A DNA stretch of 32,000 nucleotides from Gemmata obscuriglobus (lineage in GTDB: Bacteria > Planctomycetota > Planctomycetia > Gemmatales > Gemmataceae): contig NZ_CP042911.1 in the NCBI RefSeq assembly GCF_008065095.1, positions 8,430,001-8,462,000 on the forward strand, written 5' to 3'. The notes beneath the pieces are model-generated. The model was given only the letters and a program-made list of their open reading frames with translations. It searched no databases and was not told where the DNA came from. Position numbers and translations under genes: made by a program. Shown piece after piece: positions 3,017-31,466 of the stretch (position 1 is its first letter; every line of letters begins with the position of its first letter).

Positions 3017-3778
3017 TTACTTGGCGCGACGGAGCCGGCCGAGGAGCAGGCTGCCGAACCCGATGCCCGCGAGCACGACGCCCGGAGGAGTTGGGATCGC
3101 GCTGGGCGGCGTCGGGGGCGGGCTGGTCACAACGCTGACCGGCACCTTGTCGCCGTCCGGGTCGTTGTAGCCGGCGTACTTGGTCTTGTTCGTCGAGCGG
3201 AACCGGACCGAGAACGGGACCGCGCTCGAACCCGTGCCGGCGCTCTTCTCGCCGATCAGTTCGGCCGCGGTCAGGCCGAGCAGCGCGCTGCCCGTGAGGG
3301 TCACCTGGAACGTCGCCGAGCCGCCAGCGCCGATGCCCTTGGCGATCTCGGCAGTCGCGACCGTGTGCAACTGGCTCGAGTTGGTGCTGAACGCGTAGTC
3401 GAACTCGCCGCCCTGGAGGTTGGTGGCGTTGGCCGCGGCGTTCAGGAGCTTGAAGTCGGTGTCGCTGACGACCGGGTTCGAAGCGGTCACGCCGGTCGGC
3501 ACGTTGAAGCCGAAGCCGGTGATGAACCCGTAGGCGTACGCGTCGCTGGTGGTCGGGGTCGTGTTGTTCAGGGTGACCGTCAGCGTGGCGGTCGTGGTGC
3601 CGCCGACCGTGGTCGTGGGGCCCAAGGTGAGCCGGCCGCTGAAGCTGACCGGATCGTCACCGGTGCGGGAGCCACTGAAGTCGACGTAGTCGGCCCGAGC
3701 GGCGCCGGCCGATGCGCAAAGGGCCACCGCCGCGGCCACCGCCGCGAGGCGGGTCCGCGAGGCGAAACGGGAGAACAT
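3017..3778 (-). CDS. secreted protein with PEP-CTERM-like C-terminal sorting signal (paralog of 1881-2600 at the anchor)
   Basis: Signal peptide 'MFSRFASRTRLAAVAAAVALCASAGAARA'. C-terminus 'PTPPGVVLAGIGFGSLLLGRLRRAK'. GGAG lies 9 nt before the ATG at 3778; the ORF track starts at a TTG at 3787. A 57-bp stretch of the 3' end is identical to 1902-1958. Confidence 0.8.
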   Translation of the reverse strand: MFSRFASRTRLAAVAAAVALCASAGAARADYVDFSGSRTGDDPVSFSGRLTLGPTTTVGGTTTATLTVTLNNTTPTTSDAYAYGFITGFGFNVPTGVTASNPVVSDTDFKLLNAAANATNLQGGEFDYAFSTNSSQLHTVATAEIAKGIGAGGSATFQVTLTGSALLGLTAAELIGEKSAGTGSSAVPFSVRFRSTNKTKYAGYNDPDGDKVPVSVVTSPPPTPPSAIPTPPGVVLAGIGFGSLLLGRLRRAK

Positions 3779-4088
3779 TACGAGCAACTCCTGGGGTGGG
3801 TTCAGCAGATCGGTTTTGAGGGGGACCGGCCGGCCGAACGATGAGCAAACGCGTTCCGGACGCCCGCTGGGCGGTCGGAGCTGTCCGGCGAGTTGTGCCG
3901 AACACTCACGATGTTACTCCGGAGTTCGAGTCGTTCAACGGCACAGAATAGGCAGTTGGTAGCGATTGTGCCGATTATTCCGACGGCAGAATTGGTGACA
4001 CGTGAACCCGGCTCCGGAAGGTGGAGTCATTCCGGTTCCAGCTTAAAATCAGAGTCTCTCGGACTCGTTGAGGAGACTGTTTCAGCCC

Positions 4089-15082: not shown

Positions 15083-15823
15083 TTACCTGGTAGGGACTGC
15101 AACGGAAATTTTGCGTGTATTCAACCAAACATGGCGCACGGTGATGGCGGGGGCAATGGTGCTGGTCAGCGGGTAGATGAAGCCGCGATCATGGACGGTG
15201 ATATAAGTGACCTGAGACAAATCGGTTGAATTGCAATCTGGACAAGCTATAGGATTTCCAGTCGCTTTGATTGTTGCCTTGCGTTTGTTAAAGGCCGCCT
15301 TTAGTTTCTTAGAGATGGCGTAGGTGGGATCGGCATAGCCGATCATAAGAGCCTGCGGTAGTGCCCAAGCGTAATGACCGTTTACAAATCTGAGCAGGCC
15401 TTTGTCGCAGTAATCCCTGCCTGCTGGGTGGTCAACGTCTACGGGTTTACATTCCACGAAAAGCCCGTCGTTGGACGCAACGCTAACTGTTCCGTTTCTT
15501 TTGATGGAAACGTGAATATCAGGCATGTCATCAAGGTGTGTTCCATCGTAAGACTCAAACTTGGCTTCACGGGTGATACTGAACTGTTCGGAGGTGAAAC
15601 CTGGCACTTCCGAACCATCTAGAATCCGGTTTACCAAACACGTACGCAACTCGCGAGTAATGCGATCCTCGTTAGCGTTCGTGATGTCGAAATCGCCGTC
15701 GGGATGATTCACAATCTCCTGCCATGCCGCAACAACCGCCCTCTCAATCAAGAGGAGGGTCGCTTTGGGATAGGGTTGATGGGGCAGTGAGACGGGCCCT
15801 TTAGTATAAAAGCCAATCCGCAT
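15083..15823 (-). CDS. PD-(D/E)xK-type nuclease (putative restriction/effector endonuclease)
   Basis: 'DDMPDIHVSIKRNGTVSVASNDGLFVECKPV' gives a PD...ExK motif. The gene is low in GC. Its ATG lies 3 nt after the methyltransferase stop. Confidence 0.65.
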   Translation of the reverse strand: MRIGFYTKGPVSLPHQPYPKATLLLIERAVVAAWQEIVNHPDGDFDITNANEDRITRELRTCLVNRILDGSEVPGFTSEQFSITREAKFESYDGTHLDDMPDIHVSIKRNGTVSVASNDGLFVECKPVDVDHPAGRDYCDKGLLRFVNGHYAWALPQALMIGYADPTYAISKKLKAAFNKRKATIKATGNPIACPDCNSTDLSQVTYITVHDRGFIYPLTSTIAPAITVRHVWLNTRKISVAVPTR

Positions 15824-15826
15824 GAT

Positions 15827-18800
15827 TTAACCGGTGATTGCGTCTAAGTGCAAACGAATAATGTCACCAGCAAGCAACCTAGCGCGAGATATTGTCCAGT
15901 ACCGAAAGTGGTTAAAGATGCCAACGACGAGGCCAGAGCTTTCGGTGTGTATAATTTGAGTCGCGCCAGTCTCATCCGCGATCTGAAGAATCTCTTCCAT
16001 TAGCCGGTACCCCCCATTCAAGATCAGGTCAAGGTTTGCAGCGTTGCTAGCCTTGGTCGTGAGAAACAATACATCGAACGGGGAGGAGAACTTGCCTTTC
16101 TCGGCCGGCGATTTGACTTGATGAATGTGGAGCGTCCCAAACGCCGGTGTAACAATGGGCGAAATAGCCTTTGCTAAATACGCAATAAACGTAGCGCGTT
16201 CAGCTTCAGTAGCTGGCCTACACGCACGTTCACGGGATCTTTCGTATGGAAGCGCTACCGCCAGTGTGTCGCGAATAACTTGGAGATCATAGTCGCGCAA
16301 TTGATACAGCTTGGCAAAAAATGTATCAACATCGTCCCATGGTATCGCCGAGTTGCTTTCCAGCGACTCAGACAGACGCATTAATTCATTGCGATCAGTC
16401 GGTGTCAGATTTTCCAGCGGCGGAATCGGACAATGTTCTAGGTCGGCCTTCCGCGAGCGACGGCGTTCGGCTCCGAATTCAGGACTCGTGGCCAGGAGAT
16501 AATAGAGCCAAATGTCGCTATGCACGAACAGGTGGAGATAGCGAGCAAGCAGTTCCCCATCCGGATGTCCGGCAGCAGAGTAGCCGTTGAAAACTTCGCT
16601 GTAGGCTACTTTGTCAAAGCAGAGGAGCGCGCGCCCAACCTCCCGGCTCTCTCCCGGCGATTGCCGGATGAGCGCCAGTGGCGGGTCGTAAATGGTTGGC
16701 TTGCGAGGCCGCCACACTAGATCGCGGGTAAACTCACGAAGTCCTGCAGTGTCAACCTTGAACTGAAATAGGTCAGTAGACGTGAGGTTTGGCCGTCCCT
16801 TTAGGAAGGAACAATCGCTGAGCCCATCCTGCTTCTCCGCTAATTGATAGCCTTTCCCACTGCGATTCTTGCCGACAACCCGCCTCCAATACTTGGCGAG
16901 CGGCTCGCCCACCGCCTTCAACTTCTCGATTACCTCTACATCGAGCATAGTGCCAATCGAAAGCGTCTTCCAAATCCATGGCTTCTTAGTCGCAAGCGCT
17001 GTGTCGATCGGCCGGGTGGACTCCGAGTCGATTCGAAACTGGCCCGCTTTGTTTAGCGCCAGGTCGAGCGGAAGCGTCACGAAGTATGTGTGATGGCCTT
17101 GTGGAGGCCGCTCGTTGGTGGCGAAAAGCAGCATCCAAGGTTGATTCATCTTCGGCCAAACCAGCGTGTCTGCCAGATTGGTCCCGTTAATAATTCCGTC
17201 CACACGAAGCAGGCGGAATATCATCGCCCGTGCCGCGGCTGGGTTTTTCGCCGACTTTAGCAGCAGACGGGCAGGCAAAGCCATACCAATCCGCCCTCCC
17301 GGCTTGCACCACTCAATTGAGCGTAGCAAGAATGGCAGGTCCGGATTGTTGTCCGGGAGGACTACTTCTACACTATTATCGTCACCTACTCGTTTTATTA
17401 TAGATTCGTAAGCGCCCGCCAACCTCTTGCCCATGTTCTTATCGAGGCTAGTCCACGGAGGATTGCTGACAACTATGTCAAATTTACCGTCAAAATTCTT
17501 GCCGACGTGTGCACCAAGGCTGCCGAGGGCTTGGGAATCTGTCGATACACCGTCCTCCCGCACGTTATGGAGAACGCGGCCTCGGAGGTTCTTGAACTTC
17601 AATTTGTCCGGTGGCTGCGGTTCCGGGTCTAGCTCGACGGCCGTGAGATACAGGCTCAACGCCGCTAATTTGAGCGCAGCCTCGCTGATATCCAAGCCAA
17701 CGAGTTGCTTCTCGAGAATCTCCCTGATGACAGCCGTATCTGGCCGTTTCTTATCTGCGGCTGCCCTCCACCGCTCGAGATAGAGGCGACGGAACGAAAG
17801 AACCAAAAAAACTCCGGCGCCACATGCTGGATCAAGAATCCGGCAGGCCTCAATGTTTGTGATACCTTCCAGCATCTCATTCAGCAACGTCACCGCGATG
17901 TTTCGCGGGGTGTACCGCTGGCTGGTCTTCTTAGCCTCTCTCGGCGTCCACTCCCAACACAGCGCCTCGTAAACTTGGCTCAGTAGACCGACGGGGATGT
18001 GGGCAAAATCGAATTCTTGCCACTCCCACTTGAGCATCGGCTGATAGCTGTTACCACGTGGCTGGTGCCCTCTGACCACTGCCGACAAATGCCGGAAGAC
18101 GTCACCACTGGTGACTGTCGCAATACGCTCGAAGAAAGTGGCGTTGCCCCCGTCGGTGAGTGGCAGGAAATCCCCGTTAAAAGTTTTGTCTAACCACGCA
18201 CAAGTGTTCGCCGAATTCTCTGCGTCTCGAAAACACTCCGTCCAATCTAGCGCCTTAGGGGCGATCTTCGAGAACGAATAGTTGTCTAAAACCCCGCGAT
18301 CTCGCAAAAATCGAAAAAACAGCGCCCGTCCGACGAGCGATATCGCATCCGGCCGAAGGCTTTCATTCCTGGCGATCTTGCTTGCGGTGTGCTTTATAAG
18401 GTTAAACAACCGGCCAAACACAGCATCGCCTGCCCCGAAGTCTTCGCCCTCAGCCATTCCAAACGCGAGCCGGGAGAATAGGGACCGGCCCTCTGTCGAA
18501 CCCGGTGTATATTCGACCCAGTTCGGCGTTTTGTCAGTTAGGGAGACTGGCGCGACGGTAATCTTGCCGAGATCGATCCGAGCGAGATAAACTCGCTCCC
18601 CGCGGCAGGCGAGTTGACGGAAAATAATCGGGATTTCGTCCGGCTCGTCATGGAACAGGTTATTTTTCGGTGATTGCTGCCCAAGCCGTTGCTCATCAAC
18701 GAAATACAGGACGGGCCGGCCCTGATACTCGGCGACACCGTCAGGTGAAGGCCGGTTCTTGCGGCGAAGCGAATTTAGGGTGAGGTAGTCTTGAAGATCA

Positions 18801-18940
18801 GGGGAAGGAACTTGCTGTCCGAAAATGCGGACATTGTCCTCGGCTACTCCGTAGCCGAGCAGTTCGTCGCGCAATTGATTTGCTGACCGGGACGGCATGG
18901 GGTTAATGTGGTTAAGACATTCATTAGCGACTGCCGGCAA
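15827..18940 (-). CDS. large gamma-class N6-adenine DNA methyltransferase (type IIG / PglX-like architecture)
   Basis: Motif I 'ILDPACGAGVFLV', motif IV 'VVSNPPWTS', upstream helical 'FFRFLRDRGVL' and 'LLSQVYEAL' motifs, and a long C-terminal target-recognition-like region. 1037 aa, low GC. Confidence 0.85.
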   Translation of the reverse strand: MPAVANECLNHINPMPSRSANQLRDELLGYGVAEDNVRIFGQQVPSPDLQDYLTLNSLRRKNRPSPDGVAEYQGRPVLYFVDEQRLGQQSPKNNLFHDEPDEIPIIFRQLACRGERVYLARIDLGKITVAPVSLTDKTPNWVEYTPGSTEGRSLFSRLAFGMAEGEDFGAGDAVFGRLFNLIKHTASKIARNESLRPDAISLVGRALFFRFLRDRGVLDNYSFSKIAPKALDWTECFRDAENSANTCAWLDKTFNGDFLPLTDGGNATFFERIATVTSGDVFRHLSAVVRGHQPRGNSYQPMLKWEWQEFDFAHIPVGLLSQVYEALCWEWTPREAKKTSQRYTPRNIAVTLLNEMLEGITNIEACRILDPACGAGVFLVLSFRRLYLERWRAAADKKRPDTAVIREILEKQLVGLDISEAALKLAALSLYLTAVELDPEPQPPDKLKFKNLRGRVLHNVREDGVSTDSQALGSLGAHVGKNFDGKFDIVVSNPPWTSLDKNMGKRLAGAYESIIKRVGDDNSVEVVLPDNNPDLPFLLRSIEWCKPGGRIGMALPARLLLKSAKNPAAARAMIFRLLRVDGIINGTNLADTLVWPKMNQPWMLLFATNERPPQGHHTYFVTLPLDLALNKAGQFRIDSESTRPIDTALATKKPWIWKTLSIGTMLDVEVIEKLKAVGEPLAKYWRRVVGKNRSGKGYQLAEKQDGLSDCSFLKGRPNLTSTDLFQFKVDTAGLREFTRDLVWRPRKPTIYDPPLALIRQSPGESREVGRALLCFDKVAYSEVFNGYSAAGHPDGELLARYLHLFVHSDIWLYYLLATSPEFGAERRRSRKADLEHCPIPPLENLTPTDRNELMRLSESLESNSAIPWDDVDTFFAKLYQLRDYDLQVIRDTLAVALPYERSRERACRPATEAERATFIAYLAKAISPIVTPAFGTLHIHQVKSPAEKGKFSSPFDVLFLTTKASNAANLDLILNGGYRLMEEILQIADETGATQIIHTESSGLVVGIFNHFRYWTISRARLLAGDIIRLHLDAITG

Positions 18941-20554: not shown

Positions 20555-21775
20555 TCACCACGCCAGCGCGAAAGTGTCTAGCGCCGGCGCGCGGTGTCGT
20601 TCTTGCGTGCGAATGATCCAGTCGATCGGGACTCGCCGCGCGGGAAACCCCTGCACATCGGAAAGGGCGAAGCTATCCCCCTGGCGGACCATCCGATCGG
20701 CCACAGCCTCATCGATCCAGAACGCGGCCCGGGGCTGATCCTCGGGCCACACCGGGCCGCCGTGGGCCGAATCGCCCCACGAGTTCAGGCAGAGCACACC
20801 GGGCCGGCTGCCATTGCGCCACGCGATGAAGCACATCGCGTGCGGCCAGGTGCCCCGCGGCGTGCAGAACCCCTGCGCATCCCGGGTGCCCACCGAGCCG
20901 TCGCGGTTGTCGAACCCCACGTCACTGCACACCACCACCGGATAGCCCTGAGCGATGGCGCGCTTCACGTCGGCGGCGCTCTTCACCAGCGCCGCGCCTT
21001 TTACCGGATGTTGTCGGGCAACCGCGCTCACCTCGGCAGGGATGCCGCGCGCGCCCCACTCGCGGGCGCGGGCCGGGCTGAACGTGGTCAGGTCCGTGGA
21101 ACCGATCCGCTCCATCGGCGCGATGCCGCCCACCCGACCCACGTACTCGCACGCCCACCGCCCGAGCGACCCATCCCCGCGGATCTGGCCCTTGCCCACG
21201 TCGATGCGTGAGCCGGCATAAACCACCTCGACGCTCACCGGCTTCCACTCAAAGCTCGCGCCCTGGGCGATGGCCGTTGCCTGGACCGTGTCGCACCCGT
21301 GCTTCGTGGCGGCCCCGACGCAACAGCCCACGCTGCCTTGGTTGACGTTGGGGTATGCGGTGTCAGGCAGTTTGGCGGCCTTGCGCACCGCGCGGAATAG
21401 GAACACGTCGTCATCGCCCAGCGCGGCCCGACCGGCGGGCGTCTGCTCGAAGTGCAGCGTTTTCGTCTGATCCAGGTTCCGCTCGATCACGTCCGGATCG
21501 CGAACCCACCCGGTCGGCTTCTCGAACTCATCGAGCCGCTCGCTTGGCGCGGGCGTCGGCACCTCAACCCGCTTCTCGATCTCGCGCACACGCTCGGGCG
21601 CGACCTGCACCCCGACGCCGGTGCCTAGCACCAGCGGGAGGATGATTTTCAAGGCCAGAATTGCCAGCCGGCGGAGCCGCTCGCGGCGCTCCGGGTTCAG
21701 TTGCGCGTCATTACTCATTCGGCTACCTCGTTGGGGTGGGGCGTGCTGGTACGTTTCGTGAGCGGGGCTGCTCAC
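20555..21775 (-). CDS. membrane-anchored papain-like (C1-type) cysteine peptidase
   Basis: The N-terminal TM is 'LAILALKIILPLVLGTGVGV'. The Gln/Cys motif is 'NQGSVGCCVGAA', the His is in 'WPHAMCFIAW' and the Asn is in 'LNSWGD'. The start is either a GTG at 21775, in a GTGA overlap with the upstream stop, or an ATG at 21718. Confidence 0.7.
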   Translation of the reverse strand: MSSPAHETYQHAPPQRGSRMSNDAQLNPERRERLRRLAILALKIILPLVLGTGVGVQVAPERVREIEKRVEVPTPAPSERLDEFEKPTGWVRDPDVIERNLDQTKTLHFEQTPAGRAALGDDDVFLFRAVRKAAKLPDTAYPNVNQGSVGCCVGAATKHGCDTVQATAIAQGASFEWKPVSVEVVYAGSRIDVGKGQIRGDGSLGRWACEYVGRVGGIAPMERIGSTDLTTFSPARAREWGARGIPAEVSAVARQHPVKGAALVKSAADVKRAIAQGYPVVVCSDVGFDNRDGSVGTRDAQGFCTPRGTWPHAMCFIAWRNGSRPGVLCLNSWGDSAHGGPVWPEDQPRAAFWIDEAVADRMVRQGDSFALSDVQGFPARRVPIDWIIRTQERHRAPALDTFALAW

Positions 21776-22408: not shown

Positions 22409-22423
22409 CCCGGCCGATGTCAC
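22409..22423 (-). promoter_or_regulatory. copy 1 of conserved motif GTGACATCGGCCGGG(GG)
   Basis: The minus strand reads GTGACATCGGCCGGGGG. It contains the TGA stop of the 22420-22764 gene. Its downstream end, including the two extra G's at 22408-22407, lies 20 nt upstream of the ATG at 22386. Confidence 0.6.
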
Positions 22424-22764
22424 AGGGGCTCGGACTCCTGCACGTGGGGCTGTAACCCACGAGCGGCGAGCCACGCGACCCAATGCGTCTCGCGGTCGTA
22501 CACAGCGGGATCGACCGTATACGCGGAACTGCCCGGGATCGCGGCCGTGAGCCCGCCGAGCGCCGCGACCGTCTCCGGGCCGCACGGGGCGCAGCAGCCG
22601 TAGGCGGTGAGGGCCACGTCCGACGGGCCGGGGAACGGCACGAGGGGTACGCTGAACGAGTAGGCGCCCGGGGCCGGGGGCGAGGTCAGGTAGGGCGATA
22701 CGGCCGCTTCCGCGGGGGCGCGGGCGGCGGCGGGGACGATGGCGATAACGTAGGCGGCTGGCAC
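22420..22764 (-). CDS. hypothetical phage protein
   Basis: 114-aa ORF. Its GTG at 22764 lies 2 nt after the LamG gene stop. Confidence 0.5.
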   Translation of the reverse strand: MPAAYVIAIVPAAARAPAEAAVSPYLTSPPAPGAYSFSVPLVPFPGPSDVALTAYGCCAPCGPETVAALGGLTAAIPGSSAYTVDPAVYDRETHWVAWLAARGLQPHVQESEPL

Positions 22765-22766
22765 CG

Positions 22767-23591
22767 CTACAGCCCTCCGAGATAGGCTTCAAGGGCCGAT
22801 TTGGTTCCGGCGCTGAGCGGATCGCCGAACAGAAGAGAGAAGCCCGGCATTCGGCCCAGGTAATTATTTAAACCCGCTTCCGCACCAATATTCAAAGATG
22901 TTGCCGGATAAGGTACTCCGGTTGACCAGTTGATCGTCGCTGGCGCGCCGCCGTCCTTTGACAGCCTGGTTTGCGAAATGCCCGCATCGAACTCAGCTAC
23001 AAGCGTGAATGGTGTTCCCGCCGTGAAAGTAGTTCCACTGGTTTGTGATAGTAACGTTCCCGCGCCGCCGTTTGAACCGTACAGGATCGCTATAAGCCCT
23101 ATCGAGTTGGGTGGAATTCTCACATGGTGACCACGGGTAATTCCGCCGACGCTGGAAGAGCCGTAAAGGCAAGCGGTAGAAGATGCTTTGACAGAGGCAT
23201 TCGCCCGCATCCCGACTGTCACAGAGCCACCCAACGGAACGGGTTCGTTCGCGTTAGCTATCAAGCAATCATCAACCCCGTCGAAACTCAGTGAGTACAG
23301 GTTGCCGCCCTCCGAATACAGCAACGGTCGAGCGGCGTCACTCGGGGCGACGAACTCGACGGCCCCTGACGGACCATAAGGCCACACGGCCACGCGCACC
23401 GGATCGAGGTGCGAGGACGCGCGAGTCGTCTTCGCCGCGTCCTGGTATAGCAGCCCGTTTGTACGCATCCACGCCGCGAGGACGGAATACGAGGCGCCGA
23501 ACGCGGCGAGCGGGTTCGTGAGCCCGTCCCGCCGCCGCAACTGATTGATTGCCAAGCCCACTCCCAAACGCATCGCGCGGCCCTCACGCAT
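22767..23591 (-). CDS. LamG/concanavalin-like domain protein (tail fibre / receptor-binding candidate)
   Basis: 'LYSLSFDGVDDCLIA' is the typical LamG-family opening motif. The composition is beta-rich and Gly/Ser/Thr-rich. GC is lower than in the flanks. Confidence 0.65.
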   Translation of the reverse strand: MREGRAMRLGVGLAINQLRRRDGLTNPLAAFGASYSVLAAWMRTNGLLYQDAAKTTRASSHLDPVRVAVWPYGPSGAVEFVAPSDAARPLLYSEGGNLYSLSFDGVDDCLIANANEPVPLGGSVTVGMRANASVKASSTACLYGSSSVGGITRGHHVRIPPNSIGLIAILYGSNGGAGTLLSQTSGTTFTAGTPFTLVAEFDAGISQTRLSKDGGAPATINWSTGVPYPATSLNIGAEAGLNNYLGRMPGFSLLFGDPLSAGTKSALEAYLGGL

Positions 23592-23826
23592 AGGCGACGA
23601 TGTCGCTGGCCGTTGTGCCCGTGGCGTTCACCCGGATGCCCTCGACGGGCAGCGGTTCGCCGTTCGAGCAGTTCTTGAACGTGACCGGCGCGCCGTCCTT
23701 TCGCACTACCACTACGTCGCCCGCGGTCCCGACCCGCAAGGACCGGAACGCGCGCTCGGCGTTCGCCGCGTTGCTCGGGGTGACCGCGAAGAAGTAGTCG
23801 CTCGGGTCGGACATGCTCGCGGGCAT
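23584..23826 (-). CDS. small hypothetical phage structural-module protein
   Basis: 80 aa, overlapping the next gene by 8 nt. Confidence 0.5.
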   Translation of the reverse strand: MPASMSDPSDYFFAVTPSNAANAERAFRSLRVGTAGDVVVVRKDGAPVTFKNCSNGEPLPVEGIRVNATGTTASDIVAYA

Positions 23827-23886: not shown

Positions 23887-26358
23887 TCACCCGGTCGGCG
23901 CGTCCGGCCACGGCCCCCACTTCGGCGCCTGCCCCTTCTTGACCAGCCCGCACGATTCGGTTGCGAGCGGCAGCTTCGCCTCCAGCGGGCACCCGCACGC
24001 GGCGCACGCGTCCAGCGCCCGCTCCTCGCACAGGGCGCACTCCGCCTGACGCGATTCGAGCACCTCCAGCGGCACCGTCCGGCGCCCGCCCGCCACGTGC
24101 CGCGCCATCGCCGCCGTGTAGTTCATCGCCTGGCGCCACAGCGCCGGCTTCTGTTTCACGTCCTCGGCGCACCGCGACAGAACCATCAGCCCGTGGTTGT
24201 TCCGGTCGCGGCGCGTCACCACCCAGCCCGGGTGGCGGTGGCAGAAGGTTCGCAGCGCGTGCAACACGCCCGGGGCGTCGGGCCGGTCGCCGCTCTCCCC
24301 GAACGTCTCGGTGCAGTGAACCACGATGTACTTGCCGACCCGCTCGCGGTGCCGCTCCAGCAGGGGCATGAGGGCGTCGGCGGTGTGCTCGGTGTCGATG
24401 AACAGCAGGTCCACCGGGGGCAGGTCCGCGGCCGCCGGGTCGGCGGTGCGGCCCTCGAACCGCGCGCCCAGCCAACCCCTCAACCGCGCCCATTGCGGCT
24501 TCGGCCGGGGGCACACGCTCACGAACGTGCCGTCCGCCGGCAGCCCGGCGACGAGCGCCGCGTCCGCCGGCTTCATCCACAGCGACAGCTCCGCGGCGCT
24601 CGAGCACTTCGCCGCCAGTTCCCGGAGCGTGCCAACGTGCTCGTGGAAGTCGGACGGCTTCGCGGCCGACGCCTCGGCCCACGCGGCGGGCGTCGGGTGC
24701 GCGTTCGCCTCGCACGCCGAGCACCCGGCCGGCTTCTGCGCCTTGAACTGCGTCACGTCCACGTTCGACACGGTGACCATCGGGCCGGGCCACCAGTGCC
24801 GCGCCTCGCCCCAGTGCGGGTGCCACAGGGACGCGCCGCGCGGCTCGTAGCACACGTCCCCGTGCGCCGTGAACCGGCCGGCGGTGTGGTTCACGTGGAC
24901 GCTCGGGGTGCCGCTCAGCCCGGAGGGGTCGGCGGGTTCCAGGCGCGCCCAGGCGGACCGGTCGGCGCCGTGGTCCGGTTCCAACACGACGGGCTTTCCG
25001 GACTTGGCCTCGGCTTCGGCGCGGGCCAGGTTCCCGAGGAACGTGCCCCAGCGCAAGCAGAGTTGGTGCAGGGGCTCGTGTCGCTCGCGCACCCGCTGCC
25101 AGCCGGTGCCGTTGAGCCCGATGTAATCGAGGTGCGACACCACTGGCGCATTCGGGTTGGCCGCCAGGGCATCCCCAAGGCGATCGAAGTACCCGGGCGG
25201 GTACAGCACGTCGTGCTCGCAGAACGCAACGGCGTCGAATGCCGAGCCGTCCGCGATCGCAGCCGCGACGGCCTGCCGGATCTGCGCCACGATGGTGGCG
25301 TGCGACCGCCTCGACTCCCCGCGGTGCGTTGTGAAGCGATCAAACGGGGCGCCCGGGATCTCCGCCCACCCGCATGCGCTCACGGTCACGTCGTGCCGAA
25401 GCGTCTGCTCCTGAGCCTGAGCGACGGACAGCGCGCTCCGCTGGAGCAGCGCCGGCGGGGGCGTGTTGTCCGAGTACCACACCGCCAGGATGCGTTGCCG
25501 CTTCGGCTCCGGGCGCGGGCCGCCGAACGGCTGCGCCGCTTCGGACCGCTCCACCAGCCGCCCCCAGGTGTCCGCGGACAGCCCCTTGCCGAAGTGCTCG
25601 CGGATCTGCGGGACCGCGTCGATTCCCAGCTCCCGGTGACCGACCAGCAGGTTCCACACGTGGTCCTCGGTGCGAAGCGGGTACGGGGGCGGCGGGTTGT
25701 TGTGCCAGCCGGACACGTCGCGGAACTTGTGCCGCCACCGCAGGGCCGGGAGGCAACGAGCCTTCCCGCCGCGCTGTCGCACGAGCTCATGGATGTACCC
25801 CTCCTCGCCCCCGAACCCGCTGAACAGTGGGTTGAACCCGGGCCACGCCGCGCATCGCATCAGCCACAGGCCGAGCCCCATCATGGGGATCTCTTTGGCC
25901 GTATTGCCGAGCAGGATGCTGTTATCCGTGTCCCACGTGCCCCACAGCCCGCCGCCCGGGTTCGGTCGCCAGTGTGTGCTCAGCCCCCGGCCGTCGTCGT
26001 ACACCAGCGGGCCGGAAATGATGTCCCGCGAGTCCGGATAACGTGCGATAAAGTCCAGCGCCGCCTGCACCGCGCCGGTCTCCAGGATCACGTGCGAATC
26101 GAGGCACATGGCCCACGGGGTGCGGGCGAACCGGAACACGGCGTCCCGGGGCTTGCTGGTGCCGGTGAGGTCCGGGCGGTGCAGGTACCGGCCGCCGACG
26201 GCCCGGGTGATCGCCTCCACCCGTGGGTCCCGCTCCTGGGTGTTGTCCACCACCAGGTATTCGACCTTCGGGTGGTTCGCGGCCAGGCCCGAGAGCACGA
26301 ACCACACGTGGTCCGGCTCGCCCCGGGTCGCCATGCCGATCGTCAGCGGGCTGCTCAT
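23887..26358 (-). CDS. multidomain glycosyltransferase (GT-A/GT2-like x2) fused to a class I SAM-methyltransferase-like domain and a Cys-rich tail
   Basis: N-terminus 'TIGMATRGEPDHVWFVLSGLAANHPKVEYLVVDNTQ...' is GT2-like. The second GT-A-like region carries 'FCEHDVLYPPGYF'. 'VDLLFIDTEHTADALMPLLERH...YIVVHC' matches the Methyltransf_24/TylF-like signature. The C-terminus reads 'CALCEERALDACAACGCP'. Confidence 0.75.
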   Translation of the reverse strand: MSSPLTIGMATRGEPDHVWFVLSGLAANHPKVEYLVVDNTQERDPRVEAITRAVGGRYLHRPDLTGTSKPRDAVFRFARTPWAMCLDSHVILETGAVQAALDFIARYPDSRDIISGPLVYDDGRGLSTHWRPNPGGGLWGTWDTDNSILLGNTAKEIPMMGLGLWLMRCAAWPGFNPLFSGFGGEEGYIHELVRQRGGKARCLPALRWRHKFRDVSGWHNNPPPPYPLRTEDHVWNLLVGHRELGIDAVPQIREHFGKGLSADTWGRLVERSEAAQPFGGPRPEPKRQRILAVWYSDNTPPPALLQRSALSVAQAQEQTLRHDVTVSACGWAEIPGAPFDRFTTHRGESRRSHATIVAQIRQAVAAAIADGSAFDAVAFCEHDVLYPPGYFDRLGDALAANPNAPVVSHLDYIGLNGTGWQRVRERHEPLHQLCLRWGTFLGNLARAEAEAKSGKPVVLEPDHGADRSAWARLEPADPSGLSGTPSVHVNHTAGRFTAHGDVCYEPRGASLWHPHWGEARHWWPGPMVTVSNVDVTQFKAQKPAGCSACEANAHPTPAAWAEASAAKPSDFHEHVGTLRELAAKCSSAAELSLWMKPADAALVAGLPADGTFVSVCPRPKPQWARLRGWLGARFEGRTADPAAADLPPVDLLFIDTEHTADALMPLLERHRERVGKYIVVHCTETFGESGDRPDAPGVLHALRTFCHRHPGWVVTRRDRNNHGLMVLSRCAEDVKQKPALWRQAMNYTAAMARHVAGGRRTVPLEVLESRQAECALCEERALDACAACGCPLEAKLPLATESCGLVKKGQAPKWGPWPDAPTG

Positions 26359-26386
26359 GTCGCTCGTCTCGTGAAGCTGGGGCCGG

Positions 26387-27973
26387 TCAAAACGGGCTGC
26401 TGGTGCTGAGCCCGGTGGTTACGGGCGGCGGCGGCGGCGGTGGCGGCGGTGTGGTGGTCGTGCCCGCGCCCGCGCAGGTGCCGTTGCACGACGCCAGGGA
26501 CATCGGCCCCGTGACCGTGCAGCCCGCGCACTGGTTAATCGGATCGAAGGAGCACAGCGCCGCGCCCCCGGGGCACTGGCAGCAGTAGTAGTCCACCGCC
26601 GGGCCGCCCGTCGTGGTGGTCGGCGCGGGTGTGGTGGTGCTGGTGGTCGTGGTCGGCGCCGCCGTCGTGCCGCCGCCGGGGCCGCAACCGTTGGCGCACG
26701 CGACCTCGGACGGGAACTGCGACCGCAGGGTCGGGGTCTCGTAATTCTCGCACGGGTGGCCCGGTTCGTTCGTGCAGACGAACCGGACGAAACCCTGGTA
26801 CCGGCACTGCCAGCAGTAGAACGGTTGCGCGGTGGTGGTCGTCGTGGTGGGCGGCCCGGCGGTGGTGGTCGGCGCGGCCGTGGTGGTGACGGGCAGCGGT
26901 ACGCACGCCCCGGCCGCCTGGGCGCAGGTGCCGGACGGGGCGCCGGGCGGCACCTGGCACGAGCACCCGCCGGCGTTCCCGCACGGCCGCACCACCTTGT
27001 CCCAGCTCGTGCCGCTGTCCGAGCCCCAGATGCAGTCGCCGCACCCGGCCGGGGACGCGGTGGTCACCGCGGCGCACGGGTCGGCGGCGCCGTGGACGTA
27101 GCAGGGGGTGGCGGCCTCGTGACCACAAGAGTTCCCGGGGGCGGCCGGCGCGTCGCAGGAGCAGTTGGGCACGCGCGAGCCGGCGCAGGTGTCGCCAATC
27201 TTCTCCCAGCGGTCGCTCTCGCCCGCCACCCCCGACACCCACACCCAGCGGCACCCACCGTTGCAGAACGACGGCGGCACCACGCACGGGGTGTGTGCCG
27301 GCGCACAGGACGAGCACGCCCCGGCCGGCGGCTGACAGCCGCAGTAGCCGGCGCACCCGTTGCGCGTCTGCACCCACCCGCGGACCGGGTGACAGAACCA
27401 GTCGCACCCCTCGGTGCAGTCCGACGGGGCCGGGCACGGGCCGCCCGTCGTGGTCGCGCCGGTGCAGTTTGGGGCTTTGGCGTCGGCGGCGAGGGCGCCA
27501 CACGCGGTGGTGGCGCAGGCGTCGGCGGCGGGGCACCACGTCGGGGCGAGGCAGTGGCAGTCGGTGGCGCAGGTCGAGGTGGTGCGGGTCCAGATTTTCG
27601 AGGAGGCGGAGTAGGTCCACTGGCACGCGCCGGCGCACGGGCCAGCGGTGGTGGTCGTGGTGGTGGCAGTGCCGCACCGACCGGCCCCGTTCGGCAGCGC
27701 GTACAGCTCCCATGTCAGCCCGGCGCTTCCGTCGGCCTGGCGACACAGCGCACAATCGCCCGCGGCGAAGGCGTTGCCCAGCACCGCGACGCCAGGATTT
27801 TCCGCGGTGCCGTACCGGCCGCCCACCAGCTCGACGAGCGCACCGGCGCCCTGATCCCACACCTCCACCCACTGGTAGCTCGGGGCGGCGGCCTCTGTGA
27901 TGCGGACGACGAAGAACGGCGAGCTGTAGGCCCGGGGGGGCGCGTTCGGTGGCGGTGTGCGGAATCGGGCCAT
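26387..27973 (-). CDS. modular Cys-rich repeat protein with poly-Thr/Pro linkers (tail-fibre / host-recognition candidate)
   Basis: It has four modules of the form C-x(2-3)-C-x-W-x(7-13)-W-x6-C-x(3-7)-C-x-C. It also has two '(F/Y)YC(W/C)QC' modules. Linkers include 'TATTTTTTAG', 'TTTAAPTTTAGPPTTTTTTAQ', 'GGTTAAPTTTTSTTTPAPTTTT' and 'TTTTPPPPPPPPP'. It follows the distal tail gene in operon order. Confidence 0.75.
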   Translation of the reverse strand: MARFRTPPPNAPPRAYSSPFFVVRITEAAAPSYQWVEVWDQGAGALVELVGGRYGTAENPGVAVLGNAFAAGDCALCRQADGSAGLTWELYALPNGAGRCGTATTTTTTAGPCAGACQWTYSASSKIWTRTTSTCATDCHCLAPTWCPAADACATTACGALAADAKAPNCTGATTTGGPCPAPSDCTEGCDWFCHPVRGWVQTRNGCAGYCGCQPPAGACSSCAPAHTPCVVPPSFCNGGCRWVWVSGVAGESDRWEKIGDTCAGSRVPNCSCDAPAAPGNSCGHEAATPCYVHGAADPCAAVTTASPAGCGDCIWGSDSGTSWDKVVRPCGNAGGCSCQVPPGAPSGTCAQAAGACVPLPVTTTAAPTTTAGPPTTTTTTAQPFYCWQCRYQGFVRFVCTNEPGHPCENYETPTLRSQFPSEVACANGCGPGGGTTAAPTTTTSTTTPAPTTTTGGPAVDYYCCQCPGGAALCSFDPINQCAGCTVTGPMSLASCNGTCAGAGTTTTPPPPPPPPPVTTGLSTSSPF

Positions 27974-27974
27974 G

Positions 27975-27989
27975 CCCGGCCGATGTCAC
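27975..27989 (-). promoter_or_regulatory. copy 3 of conserved motif GTGACATCGGCCGGG
   Basis: The minus strand reads ACGTGACATCGGCCGGGC followed directly by the ATG at 27973. Confidence 0.6.
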
Positions 27990-28076
27990 GTTGCGGCGGA
28001 GGTTGGCGCCCGTCCACTTCGCGCGCGAGCGGTGGGGCGGTTACCTTTGGTGGTTCGCCCCAACCGAGGCCCATTC

Positions 28077-28484
28077 ATGCGCGCACTGACTTTCCCGGCG
28101 ATTCTGCTCTGTGGCATCTTCTTGTTAGCGGCGGGCGTTCCGTCCACCGCGCAGGACAAGGACAAGAAGATGCCGAACCCGAACGTCGACAAGAATTACA
28201 CCGAAAAGGTGACGGTGCGGATCTTCGAGGCGGGCATTCGACCCAACGGAGCGTTGGTCGCGGAACCGGTGAAGGACGTGCGCGCGTTTCGTTACGAGAA
28301 GGATGGCGAGCTGTGGTTCTGCACGAAAGCTCACCCGGTCGCCGTGCCGAATCCGAAGACGGAAATCACGGACGAGAAGGGCAACGTCTACGTGGTTGAG
28401 AAGGTCGTCAACAACAACGACATCGGGCACAACCGGTCAAAGGTGAAGCCGAAAGCCAAGGACGCTACGCCGCCCCGACCTTAA
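28077..28484 (+). CDS. exported Lys-rich protein encoded opposite to the tail operon (moron)
   Basis: GAGG lies 7 nt before the ATG at 28077. Signal peptide 'MRALTFPAILLCGIFLLAAGVPSTAQ'. The 3' end overlaps the convergent tail gene by 20 nt. Confidence 0.65.
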   Translation: MRALTFPAILLCGIFLLAAGVPSTAQDKDKKMPNPNVDKNYTEKVTVRIFEAGIRPNGALVAEPVKDVRAFRYEKDGELWFCTKAHPVAVPNPKTEITDEKGNVYVVEKVVNNNDIGHNRSKVKPKAKDATPPRP

Positions 28485-29563: not shown

Positions 29564-30748
29564 TCAGAAGCTCCCCCCCTCGAACGCGCCACCGCCACCG
29601 GGCCGCGCCCCAAAATCGCCTTCCCCGGGCAGCCACACCCCGCCGCCGGCCGTGAGCGCGTCCACGGCGCGCATGAGCGTGGTCGCGATCGACTGTTGCA
29701 CGCGGAGCATCTTTTGCTCGATGGGATCGCCGTTTAGCGCGGCCATCTGCACGCTTTTCCCGACCCCTTCCAGCCCGGAAATGGACGCCTTCGGACCGAC
29801 GCTCAGCGCGAACGACTTCGCCACGTCGCGGAGCGCGCTCAGCACCATCGCTTGCGGGCTGCTGGGATCGGCGCCCGCGCCGCCCCGCTCGCCCTCGGCG
29901 TAGCGCAGGTCCGCGAGCCGCCGGGCCTCGTTCTCCCGGTCAACGTTCCGGGTCGTGTACCAGGGCGCGTTCGGGTCTTTCCAGTCGGCGTCTGTGAGCT
30001 TCCTGAGTTCCTCGTCGAACAGCCGGAAGTAAGCTTGGGTGTTACGTTCCGGGTCGGACACCGTGTCCCACCCGAGCCCAAACCATCTCCGATCGCCCTC
30101 CGTCGCGCGCGGGTCGGTGATGCGCTCGCCGTTGCGGTCGCGGTTGCCGAAGTTGTCCTCGACCCACTTTGCCAGATCCGCGAGCGCCGACGCCACGGTC
30201 TGCACGGCCCCGATGAACGTCACGAGCACGGGAATGCCGAGCCCGATGATCGTCGTCAGGAACCCTTCCAGGCCCGGCCCGATGGCGTTGGTGAGTACGG
30301 CCGCCGCGGACGTGAACGCGGTGGCGAGTAGCACCGTCGCCGGGAGCAGCACGGGCGCGACGGTCGCGGCGAATAACTGCACCGACTTGCCGAGGGTGCC
30401 AAACCCGCTGGTGACCGACCCGAGCGCGGCCCCCAGGACCGCCATCGGCCCGGCGACAGCAGCGAACTTGGCGAGCACGGGCGCAAACATGCTCCCGAGG
30501 CGACTGGGGGCAGGGTCAGCCGGGCCGGCCGGGGTAGGCTGTGGCGGTGCGCCGCCGGCGACACCGCTGACCGGAAGCGGTTTTGGGCCGACGACGATTA
30601 CGGGTTGCGGCCGGTCGTGGATCGGCAACCAGCCGCCGTCGTTGGTATCGCGCTCGGCCTGCTGGTTGGCGAAGATAATCGCCTGGGGCAGCCCGGAGAT
30701 TGCCCCGGCGAGGAGTTGCAGCGCGGCGGCAAGTGCGGGGTCGTTCAC
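29564..30748 (-). CDS. tail tape measure protein (short)
   Basis: It follows the G/GT chaperone pair. It has long Ala/Gly/Val hydrophobic stretches, such as 'FAPVLAKFAAVAGPMAVLGAALGSV' and 'FLTTIIGLGIPVLVTFIGAVQTV'. The GTG at 30748 is in a GTGA overlap with the upstream stop. Confidence 0.7.
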   Translation of the reverse strand: MNDPALAAALQLLAGAISGLPQAIIFANQQAERDTNDGGWLPIHDRPQPVIVVGPKPLPVSGVAGGAPPQPTPAGPADPAPSRLGSMFAPVLAKFAAVAGPMAVLGAALGSVTSGFGTLGKSVQLFAATVAPVLLPATVLLATAFTSAAAVLTNAIGPGLEGFLTTIIGLGIPVLVTFIGAVQTVASALADLAKWVEDNFGNRDRNGERITDPRATEGDRRWFGLGWDTVSDPERNTQAYFRLFDEELRKLTDADWKDPNAPWYTTRNVDRENEARRLADLRYAEGERGGAGADPSSPQAMVLSALRDVAKSFALSVGPKASISGLEGVGKSVQMAALNGDPIEQKMLRVQQSIATTLMRAVDALTAGGGVWLPGEGDFGARPGGGGAFEGGSF

Positions 30749-31466
30749 TGTTGCACCCTTTTCTCGCGTTCCTCACGCGCGGCCCGCTTGGCTTGCTCCT
30801 CGGCCCACCCCCGCGCGATGCGCTCGGGGTCCGTGATGCCGAGGTAAAAGCACCGTGTTGCGAAGAGGGCCATCTCGCCCGGCTTGCGCGGCCCCGCTGG
30901 CAGCGCCAGCTCCGGCCGTCCCTCGCCGTCGCGGTGGTGCGCAAACAGCGCTGTTAGCTGGTCGTCGGTGAGCCCGGCGAGGTAGTCGATTCGGTGGTTG
31001 AAGGGCGGGTTGGCGAGCTGGACGAGAAGAAGTCGCTTGGCAATCCGAGCGTCACCCGGACTGCCTCTAAGACTTTTGGGTCGTTGGTCGCCCTGCTCAC
31101 CATGAGTGCGGCGATTTTCTTGGCCTCGAGTTCGACGAGCCGCTCGGCCAGCTCGAACGTGAGCCCCTGATCGCGGCACATGATCGTCAGCAACTTGGCC
31201 AGCCCGAGCGGTGTCATCAACCGCTTGACGACGATCTCTCCGCCCCATTCATACACGCCTGCGGCAACGTCCTGCCCGTGAAAGCGCTCGGCCCGCTCGC
31301 GGGCGGCGTCGTCCTGGTAGCGGCGGCGCGCAATGCCATCGTAGGCGAGTTGCTCGAGCCACACTTGGTACTCGCCCTGATGCGCATTTGTGGGCTTGCC
31401 GATCCGGTAGGTTTTCCCGTCGAGAACGAACTCGGTCGGGGCGTTGACGAAGTCTGCGAGTGTCAC
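30745..31466 (-). CDS. tail assembly chaperone GT-like fusion made by -1 programmed frameshift at 31080-31074
   Basis: The -1 frame (ORF 30745-31248) is open across the slippery site. It ends in a GTGA overlap with the tape-measure start. The junction reads ...ATNDPK|SLRGSPGDARIAKRLL... Confidence 0.6.
30954..31466 (-). CDS. tail assembly chaperone (G-like, zero-frame product)
   Basis: 170-aa ORF between the tube and tape measure genes. Its GTG at 31466 overlaps the tube gene TGA. Confidence 0.7.
   Translation of the reverse strand: MTLADFVNAPTEFVLDGKTYRIGKPTNAHQGEYQVWLEQLAYDGIARRRYQDDAARERAERFHGQDVAAGVYEWGGEIVVKRLMTPLGLAKLLTIMCRDQGLTFELAERLVELEAKKIAALMVSRATNDPKVLEAVRVTLGLPSDFFSSSSPTRPSTTESTTSPGSPTTS
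31074..31080 (-). other. -1 ribosomal frameshift slippery heptamer C CCA AAA
   Basis: In the G frame the minus strand reads GAC CCA AAA GTC. The form is X XXY YYZ, and re-pairing as CCC AAA keeps both tRNAs matched. Confidence 0.6.

Follow-up and report, generated by a model that had tools for sequence, protein, structure and literature searches.

A tail-module gene pair of Gemmata obscuriglobus encoding a Thr-tract protein and its predicted O-glycosyltransferase

Two adjacent genes in a phage-like tail cluster of Gemmata obscuriglobus (Planctomycetota) are described here. They lie in a stretch of 32,000 nucleotides (nt) of RefSeq assembly GCF_008065095.1 (contig NZ_CP042911.1, positions 8,430,001 to 8,462,000 of the forward strand), which we call the window; coordinates below are positions in it, and both genes are on its minus strand. 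The first encodes p528, a protein of 528 amino acids (aa) in which Cys-rich modules alternate with threonine tracts. The second, separated from the p528 stop codon by a gap of 28 nt and downstream on the same strand, encodes p823, a soluble enzyme of 823 aa that begins with a glycosyltransferase (GT) domain of the GT-A fold. We describe the two proteins, the linkage of their genes across viral and cellular genomes, and the reading that we favour, in which the enzyme modifies the Thr linkers of its neighbour. Related loci and proteins are numbered with the prefixes L and P.

The p528 and p823 proteins

The two genes and their parts are:

26387-27973 (-): p528, 528 aa, open reading frame (ORF) and composition; predicted glycosylation substrate
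27674-27973 (-): p528 N-terminal domain of about 100 aa, beta-rich, exchangeable
27638-27673 (-): Thr linker 1 (aa 101-112, TATTTTTTAGP), pLDDT < 50; tract at aa 104-109
26900-27637 (-): four Cys/Trp modules (aa 113-358); C-x2-3-C-x-W starts at aa 113, 186, 237 and 311
26822-26899 (-): Thr/Pro linker 2 (aa 359-384); tract at aa 362-381, length differing from homolog P0001
26681-26821 (-): first (F/Y)YC(W/C)QC module (aa 385-431); low model confidence
26591-26680 (-): Thr/Pro/Ala linker 3 (aa 432-461); tract at aa 435-455
26465-26590 (-): second module, YYCCQC (aa 462-503), pLDDT 85-88; GP(F/Y/M)xSxxxCxxxC ending
26387-26464 (-): C-terminal T4-P9 tract (aa 505-517), 11-residue tail and stop
23887-26358 (-): p823, 823 aa; soluble four-domain enzyme (GT-A, GT-A-like, methyltransferase fold, Cys cluster)
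25519-26358 (-): p823 domain 1 (aa 1-280), GT-A; Pfam GT2 at aa 7-140, E 8e-12
24769-25506 (-): p823 domain 2 (aa 285-530), GT-A-like; alternating beta/alpha model, invariant E381-H382-D383 at the DxD position
24133-24696 (-): p823 domain 3 (aa 555-742), CmcI/RMNT-type methyltransferase fold; DLLFIDTEH, non-canonical motif I
23887-24132 (-): p823 domain 4 (aa 743-823), Cys cluster (C774, C777, C785, C788, C790, C803); DUF6171 / phrog_13558

The composition of p528 is unusual, with 51 Cys, 71 Thr, 61 Pro and 14 Trp, and its codon-position GC contents of 0.59/0.73/0.92 back the reading frame despite long overlapping ORFs in other frames. An earlier note, made from the letters of the window, had picked out four C-x2-3-C-x-W modules and two (F/Y)YC(W/C)QC modules with runs of Thr or of Thr and Pro, and the ORF, the positions and residue shuffles all agree with it: CxxCxW occurs four times against a mean of 0.25 in the shuffles (5 of 20,000 reach four), and the YYCxQC and Thr-run counts were reached by none of the 20,000. 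The note had the protein end in TTTTPPPPPPPPP; in fact 11 further residues (VTTGLSTSSPF) follow.

Homologs of p528 numbered 21 by word-indexed search, and 51 representative clusters were found among 1.84e9 proteins using the four-module region (E <= 1e-3). From 76 modules in 20 proteins, regular expressions and alignment give the consensus C-x2-3-C-x-W-x7-15-W-x5-C-x2-8-C-x-C-x2-P-x5-8-C-x5-6-C, with 7-8 conserved Cys per ~50 residues, possibly held by disulfides or Zn sites. In an alignment of 20 diverse homologs conservation is 90% or more at the Cys and Trp positions of all four modules; the N-termini cannot be aligned. In the AlphaFold2 model each module is a beta-hairpin bearing the two Trp, with a third strand (pLDDT 80-90), and the Thr linkers are disordered. 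The GP(F/Y/M)xSxxxCxxxC ending of the second YYC module recurs in P0002, P0009, P0013, P0015 and P0019. Searches of p528 and 10 family members returned no Pfam, PHROG or NCBIfam match, bar a spurious Myb at E 0.027, and no PDB structure was a significant Foldseek match of the p528 model (best E 2.2; weak matches to phage baseplates were left aside). The Cys/Trp module, which the earlier note had also failed to recognise, is thus an uncharacterised family that no known family or solved fold matches.

p528 is 92% identical over 73% of its length to GobsT_37810 of G. obscuriglobus. It is a mosaic: residues 113-528 are 92% identical to P0001 of G. obscuriglobus, and the first 100 residues are unrelated, with the junction at Thr linker 1. 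Tract lengths differ between the two proteins (T6 in p528 vs T7+AAPTTT, T6 vs T8, P9 vs P11). The position of the junction and the differing tracts suggest that the linkers may act as sites of recombination and slippage. Several N-terminal types occur across the family. That of p528 has low pLDDT, and a homology search with these 100 aa alone found no match; the domain is a possible tail anchor.

The best homologs of both proteins come from Gemmata, those of p823 being G. obscuriglobus and Gemmata algarum proteins of 84-85% identity, and the p823 family is strongly conserved in an alignment of 16 homologs (39-85% identity). The AlphaFold2 model of p823 has a mean pLDDT of 85.8. No transmembrane (TM) or signal-like segment was found in it, nor any hydrophobic stretch (maximum KD(19) 1.25); p528 too is without a TM or signal segment, and modification in the cytoplasm would be consistent with this. 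The earlier note had proposed two GT-A-like regions in p823. The first is borne out by Pfam, whereas the second is visible in the predicted structure only and not by sequence.

Domain 1 carries invariant D87-S-H89, F182-GGEEGY (G183, G184, E185, E186) and H210 in all 16 sequences. In structures of family GT27, the polypeptide N-acetylgalactosaminyltransferases (ppGalNAc-Ts), DxH and a third His are the Mn2+ ligands, and the GGE region is the Gal/GalNAc-T motif. A search of PDB sequences with the domain 1 family profile found a TarP-like GT2 enzyme for the nucleotide-binding half, then GalNAc-T7 and GalNAc-T10 (E 0.0057 and 0.047). In the GalNAc-T7/T10 alignment D87-S-H89 falls on DSH and H210 on the His of RVGHIYR, and FGGEEGYIHE..RQRGGK of p823 is aligned onto WGGENFEISYKIWQCGGK of GalNAc-T7, the WGGEN.E...CGGK counterpart. 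By structure, about 40 of the 50 Foldseek matches listed against PDB are ppGalNAc-T chains (T1, T2, T3, T4, T7, T10, T12, PGANT9 and Toxoplasma T3), with E from 6e-13 to 8e-10; the superposition on the catalytic-domain-only chain 4d11_F has a TM-score of 0.61 and a root-mean-square deviation (rmsd) of 3.6 Å. By architecture p823 is nonetheless not a bona fide GT27 enzyme, because it has no ricin/lectin Pfam match and no type II membrane anchor.

The top Foldseek match of p823 was a different enzyme, the chondroitin polymerase K4CP, at E 5.5e-15 over 568 columns spanning both GT domains, and PmHS2 was matched as well, the alignments with these two-GT-A enzymes covering about 500-570 columns. 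The GT-GT pair might then be a processive polymerase that makes free polysaccharide, or a long glycosaminoglycan-like chain on Thr. We regard this as the least probable of the rival explanations. TM-scores are 0.21-0.29 and the rmsd is ~19 Å, so that individual GT-A domains match those of K4CP and PmHS2 but their arrangement does not. Many domain-1-only relatives keep a Thr-tract neighbour, and a capping methyltransferase-like domain suits short, terminated glycans, as with A064R of chlorovirus PBCV-1 (PMC9614988).

For domain 3 the earlier note had proposed a methyltransferase, from 'LLFIDTEH' (aa 651-658). The modelled fold agrees with this, and the assignment is weak: Pfam matches are all sub-threshold (Methyltransf_24 in 6 of 16 members, RMNT_CmcI in 3 of 16), and a PDB profile search with the domain alignment found nothing significant. 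Its viral fold matches are annotated 'cephalosporin hydroxylase' and 'GT and methyltransferase' fusions.

Other arrangements occur among p823 relatives. In some of ~950-1020 aa (P0067, P0083, P0097, P0120) the GT is fused to dual-specificity phosphatase domains (PF00782, PF22785), and P0113 and P0121 have canonical class I methyltransferase domains (PF05175, PF13649). The 1007-aa relative at 7710-10733 of L014, which has no Thr-tract neighbour, has the order GT, methyltransferase-like, GT; its tblastn segments, in p823 numbering, run aa 1-279, 569-738, 287-527.

Linkage of the enzyme to Thr-tract genes

A p823 homolog lies directly downstream in every p528 relative examined. The paired GTs of L001 and L002 are 55% and 45% identical to p823; among full-length GT loci from IMG/VR (L004-L013) the pairing is seen in 10 of 11. 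It extends to P0019, P0021 and P0015 (loci L084-L086), the three Cys/Thr proteins that have diverged most, and to Gemmata and other genome loci (L087-L090). BLAST between loci usually finds only the p528 and p823 genes in common, the flanking genes being mostly dissimilar, so the two genes travel together, as a cassette, among differing tail modules.

The GT is much more widespread, with relatives encoded by 404 viral contigs and 362 species genomes. For linkage statistics 80 viral loci were dereplicated to 50 clusters, with comparable lengths of sequence on the two sides of the GT (357 vs 295 kb). Thr-tract ORFs around the GT numbered 30 upstream on the same strand, none downstream and none on the opposite strand (binomial p 1.6e-8). 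The ORF adjacent upstream had Thr tracts in 16 of 46 cases, against 14 of 1215 other ORFs (odds ratio 46, Fisher p 6e-17). The bias was repeated in 80 genome loci, with 43 Thr-tract ORFs upstream vs 9 downstream. We take gene linkage as the decisive evidence for the pairing of enzyme and candidate substrate, and the Thr linkers as the acceptor that it points to.

The association is broader than the earlier note held. In low-GC phages, GT or GT-GT relatives are paired with Cys-poor Thr-tract proteins having (A/E/S)PTTT repeats, so the Cys modules are not required for pairing, and many phages do without them. These proteins are large and modular, with GDSL/SGNH esterases and a common C-terminal motif of ~60 aa (L015, L024, L027, L028). 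The Thr-tract protein of L040 (404-1078) has a Calx-beta domain, and that of L019 (2480-6208), from a phage of 37% GC, has STIG1-like Cys-rich repeats together with the CxxCxW module, which reappears also in L071. Many GT relatives consist of domain 1 alone and have kept the Thr-tract neighbour. The Thr-tract ORFs upstream of the GT relatives in L015 and L028, in the numbering of their loci, are:

L015, 6712-7995
L028, 6247-8001

Relatives of domain 1 in cellular genomes form a two-gene unit of another kind. The first gene encodes a small protein with a near-pure poly-Thr tail and a twin-arginine-like signal (RRxLLK...VPAHAA); directly after it comes the gene for a fusion protein of 600-770 aa, whose C-terminal GT is a homolog of domain 1 and whose N-terminal part is a P-loop or PqqD/RRE domain (PF05402, E 2e-8). 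Such units occur in Proteobacteria, Desulfobulbales, Planctomycetota and others; L097 has in addition a stand-alone PqqD and a GT25. The units, again in the numbering of their loci, are:

L145, 4597-6852
L094, 4529-6879
L097, 2207-5246
L106, 4221-7332
L165, 4231-6828
L161, 4334-6855

The fusion of the GT to a peptide-binding domain, beside a poly-Thr precursor, argues that this GT family uses poly-Thr polypeptides as acceptors. Judged from their gene content, the units look like an undescribed glycopeptide system of several phyla, either similar to ribosomally synthesized and post-translationally modified peptides (RiPP-like) or made of poly-Thr proteins exported by the twin-arginine translocation (Tat) route.

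The linkage bears most directly on the possibility that the targets of p823 are instead other proteins of the virion, for instance capsid or tail tube, and that the Thr linkers of p528 are unmodified flexible spacers. Capsid and tail-tube proteins are indeed the targets in known phage virion glycosylation (PMC12363180), the GT of mycobacteriophage Che8 is a distant fold match of p823, and the GT relatives of L030, L032, L038 and L014 lie in tail modules with no Thr-tract protein. Such targets would leave unexplained the strict upstream adjacency of Thr-tract ORFs, the conservation of the pair and nothing else across different backbones, and the PqqD-GT fusions beside small poly-Thr proteins. 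We consider this explanation unlikely.

The surrounding window

Further features of the tail cluster are:

29564-30748 (-): tape-measure-like protein; PHROG 305/991 'tail length tape measure protein', E 3e-4 and 8e-3; tail-module marker
23584-23826 (-): 80-aa protein directly 3' of the cassette; phrog_12296 'tail fiber protein', PHROG E 2e-17
27975-27991 (-): 17-nt motif ACGTGACATCGGCCGGG, copy 1, perfect; ends 1 nt before the p528 start codon
23861-23877 (-): 17-nt motif, copy 2, perfect; 10 nt past the p823 stop and 34 nt before the 80-aa gene
22409-22425 (-): 17-nt motif, copy 3, two mismatches; upstream of the start of a 204-aa gene

A same-strand cluster runs from ~19.3 kb to the end of the window and includes the genes for the tape-measure-like protein, p528, p823 and the phrog_12296 protein. 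A homolog of the 80-aa protein with 80% identity stands at the equivalent position in L087. In relatives, the p528-like gene comes after tube, head-tail-joining or tail markers (Phage_tube_2, Phage_tail_2) and after genes of tape-measure size. From this gene position p528 is a candidate virion component and host-recognition protein.

Instead, p528 might be glycosylated by p823 and yet not be a part of the virion: a free glyco-adhesin, decoy or matrix protein, released at lysis or acting inside the cell. The protein matches no known virion protein family or fold, its N-terminal domain is modelled poorly, and the system has cellular relatives whose poly-Thr proteins are exported and are not phage parts. 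We give this only a slim chance. The p528 gene stands between the tape-measure-like and 'tail fiber' PHROG genes on the same strand, as its relatives stand after tape-measure-sized genes; the protein is without a signal peptide; and its layout, a conserved distal body with N-terminal domains that are exchanged, is one typically seen in fibre proteins.

The same surroundings bear on a role in which p823 modifies host envelope glycans (lipopolysaccharide, capsule or peptidoglycan-associated polymers) or phage DNA, the tail-fibre region being a hot spot for accessory genes. Prophage GT2 enzymes commonly modify O-antigen (Gtr systems), Pfam places domain 1 in GT2, and a moron-like gene with a signal peptide adjoins on the opposite strand. 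We hold such a role to be very unlikely: p823 has no TM helices, unlike GtrB-type enzymes; no flippase or GtrC-like partner was found among the neighbours by Pfam and PHROG; the gene is inside the late operon, on the same strand; fold and motifs are nearest to ppGalNAc-Ts; and the one-sided linkage to Thr-tract genes is kept across phyla. We rejected a role as a GtrABC-type or membrane GT, there being no TM segments and no GtrA- or GtrC-like neighbours and the gene lying inside the tail cluster.

All three copies of the 17-nt motif are on the coding strand just 5' of gene starts; shuffles predict 0.36 matches. The two perfect copies bracket the p528-p823 cassette. In G. algarum (L087) a one-base variant, GTGCCATCGGCCGGG, stands at the same two positions (547 and 5410 of that locus). 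An exact motif common to other loci was considered and rejected, as none of them has an exact copy and the closest relative has only the variant. The motif could serve in the regulation of late genes or mark the boundary of a module.

The remaining genes are described for completeness. Just 5' of the tape-measure-like gene, ORFs at 30954-31466 (-), 170 aa, and 30745-31248 (-), 167 aa, overlap in different frames, the layout expected of tail assembly chaperones made by programmed frameshifting, which these may be. The moron-like gene is an ORF of lower GC at ~28077-28484 (+), between the gene for a 382-aa tail-cluster protein and p528; it has an N-terminal signal peptide, MRALTFPAILLCGIFLLAAG..., and no family match. 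At the end of the tail/lysis-side cluster, a 406-aa protein (20555-21775, -) has no family or PDB match; a Q..C...H...N..W pattern seen by eye is reminiscent of papain-like peptidases, and it could be a lysin. PDB sequence searches with the flanking 382-, 274- and 406-aa proteins found no match, and the ORFs at 10.5-15 kb and 19.6-20.5 kb had no PHROG match.

Host genes occupy the window to ~10 kb (homoserine dehydrogenase, a Pnkp-type RNA repair enzyme, NUDIX, GNAT). The RNA repair enzyme, at 4068-6722 (+), has kinase, phosphatase and ligase domains (PNKP_ligase, E 5e-161). An ORF at 3017-3787 was rejected as a second 'Thr-tract' gene, being a host signal-peptide protein with a weak Thr patch and a C-terminus that is PEP-CTERM-like by eye. 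Between the host-like genes and the tail cluster lies a low-GC island (15083-18940, -; GC 50-55% vs ~69%) that contains an ORF of 246 aa without a match and the gene for a type IIG-like restriction-modification enzyme of 1037 aa, with N6_Mtase, Eco57I and MmeI methylase domains. No tRNA or integrase was found in the window.

Interpretation and comparison with known systems

We think it likely that the two genes are a cassette in the tail module of a Gemmata prophage in which p823 O-glycosylates the Thr linkers of p528 in the cytoplasm, giving mucin-like stalks on a tail-distal protein. The linkage data agree less well with the four rival explanations discussed above. The earlier note had proposed that the adjacent Thr linkers are what the transferase modifies, and this proposal has gained support from the conservation of the pair, the directional linkage, the likeness to ppGalNAc-Ts and the PqqD fusions.

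The acceptor, donor and order of reactions that we infer are as follows. Domain 1 would move the first sugar from a UDP-sugar (UDP, uridine diphosphate) to linker Thr hydroxyls, before or during virion assembly, and domain 2 would probably add a further sugar. Domain 3 may methylate or cap the glycan, as in PBCV-1 A064R, and the Cys cluster at the C-terminus may coordinate Zn and contribute to substrate binding. Dense O-glycans would make the linkers stiff, protease-resistant, mucin-like stalks, and the resulting beads-on-a-string fibre would display the Cys/Trp modules, which are presumably adhesive.

Several points weigh against this reading. Thr-tract neighbours were found in only 22 of the 50 dereplicated viral clusters, and are missing from L014 and the podovirus-like L030, L032 and L038. 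The sequence likeness of domain 1 to GT27 is weak (E 0.006-0.05), Pfam assigns it to GT2, and GT-A folds are promiscuous. Domain 2 has no GT signal at the sequence level by PDB profile search or hhalign; its hhalign comparison with domain 1 is not significant (probability 0.45%), the sole aligned stretch setting E-H-D on D-S-H. In domain 3 the loop after beta-1 is ELSLWMKPAD, and there is no acidic residue after beta-2; because the Gly-rich loop for S-adenosylmethionine (SAM) is lacking, sugar methylation by the modelled domain is doubtful. For the N-terminal domain of p528 there is no match among known virion proteins; the presence of p528 in virions is predicted from gene position, and its glycosylation from gene linkage. 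Finally, p823 and the Cys-module region had no tblastn match among 50,697 GenBank phage records.

A bolder proposal, which we make tentatively and judge somewhat less probable than its opposite, is that domain 1 stands for a large, unrecognised family of prokaryotic and viral polypeptide-threonine O-glycosyltransferases, related and possibly sister to GT27, whose substrates are encoded immediately upstream. The substrates would be tail-fibre-like proteins of uncultured phages and, through the PqqD/RRE-GT fusions, Tat-signal poly-Thr proteins. Phages would then make 'mucins' of their own, and the Cys/Trp module would be a new small fold carried on glycosylated stalks.

To our knowledge, self-glycosylation of tailed-phage virions is documented only in a few actinobacteriophages, in which it alters antibody recognition. 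Our search of the literature on Gemmata prophages, on phage poly-Thr, GT27 or mucin-like tail proteins and on virion glycosylation found no report of a system of the p528-p823 type. Virus-encoded glycosylation of a virus's own structural proteins is known in kind; the enzyme lineage, the type of candidate substrate, the fusion of domains and the host phylum differ here, and a new Cys/Trp module family and a broad rule of gene order, enzyme after candidate substrate, come in addition. If our reading is true, phage self-glycosylation extends to mucin-type-like enzymes, poly-Thr linkers, Planctomycetota and, by linkage, many uncultured phages. In p528 and p823 the enzyme and its candidate substrate are the products of adjacent genes, with no membrane steps. 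Confirmation would bear on the stiffness, protease resistance and adhesiveness of phage fibres, on how mucin-type O-glycosylation arose in evolution and on the glyco-engineering of phage particles; the work points also to the related poly-Thr glycopeptide system in cellular genomes.

The closest known phage systems are those of mycobacteriophages Che8, Corndog and Myrna, whose GTs glycosylate their own virion proteins, with capsid and tail-tube targets (PMC12363180). The Che8 gp110-type, Corndog gp38 and Myrna enzymes are, as p823 is predicted to be, cytoplasmic phage GT-A enzymes encoded in or near the structural operon (PMC12363180). p823 differs from them in its candidate target, a tail-distal, modular poly-Thr protein encoded immediately upstream, and in its GT27-like motifs, its fused GT-like domain, methyltransferase fold and Cys cluster, and its Planctomycetota host. 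The fold match to the Che8 GT (Q855A2) has E 5.5e-8 but TM-scores of 0.15-0.30, which is generic GT-A similarity.

Another close system is A064R of PBCV-1, a GT-GT-methyltransferase of 638 aa by which the methylated terminus of the capsid glycan is made (PMC9614988). It is a single soluble viral polypeptide with two GT domains followed by a sugar O-methyltransferase domain, and the model and fold matches of p823 suggest a similar order of GT-A, GT-A-like and CmcI-like domains; an unnamed viral protein of 638 aa (M1IF74) and giant-virus fusions of GT and methyltransferase are among these fold matches. A064R acts on an N-linked capsid glycan of a eukaryotic virus, and its first domain is GT34-like with DXD, whereas for p823 an O-linkage is predicted and the motif is DxH...H. 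p823 also has the extra DUF6171 Cys cluster, and its domain 3 is without the canonical SAM loop; the likeness is one of predicted architecture.

The best single-domain fold matches, the ppGalNAc-Ts of GT27, share with p823 the GT-A fold, DxH, GGE and the third His. Mucins likewise alternate Thr/Pro-rich tracts with Cys-rich domains, as p528 does. Unlike GT27 enzymes, p823 has no ricin-type lectin, signal anchor or Golgi context, and it is fused to other catalytic-type domains. K4CP and PmHS2 resemble it in having two GT-A domains per polypeptide and differ in that their product is a free polysaccharide; they lack a methyltransferase-fold domain and a Cys cluster, and no protein substrate is linked to them. 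In the serine-rich-repeat adhesins of Gram-positive bacteria, Ser/Thr-rich repeats are densely O-glycosylated before export by cytoplasmic GTs encoded beside their substrate; unlike p823, the GtfA/GtfB enzymes are GT-B (GT4), and their substrates are non-phage proteins, exported by the accessory Sec system and anchored to the wall.

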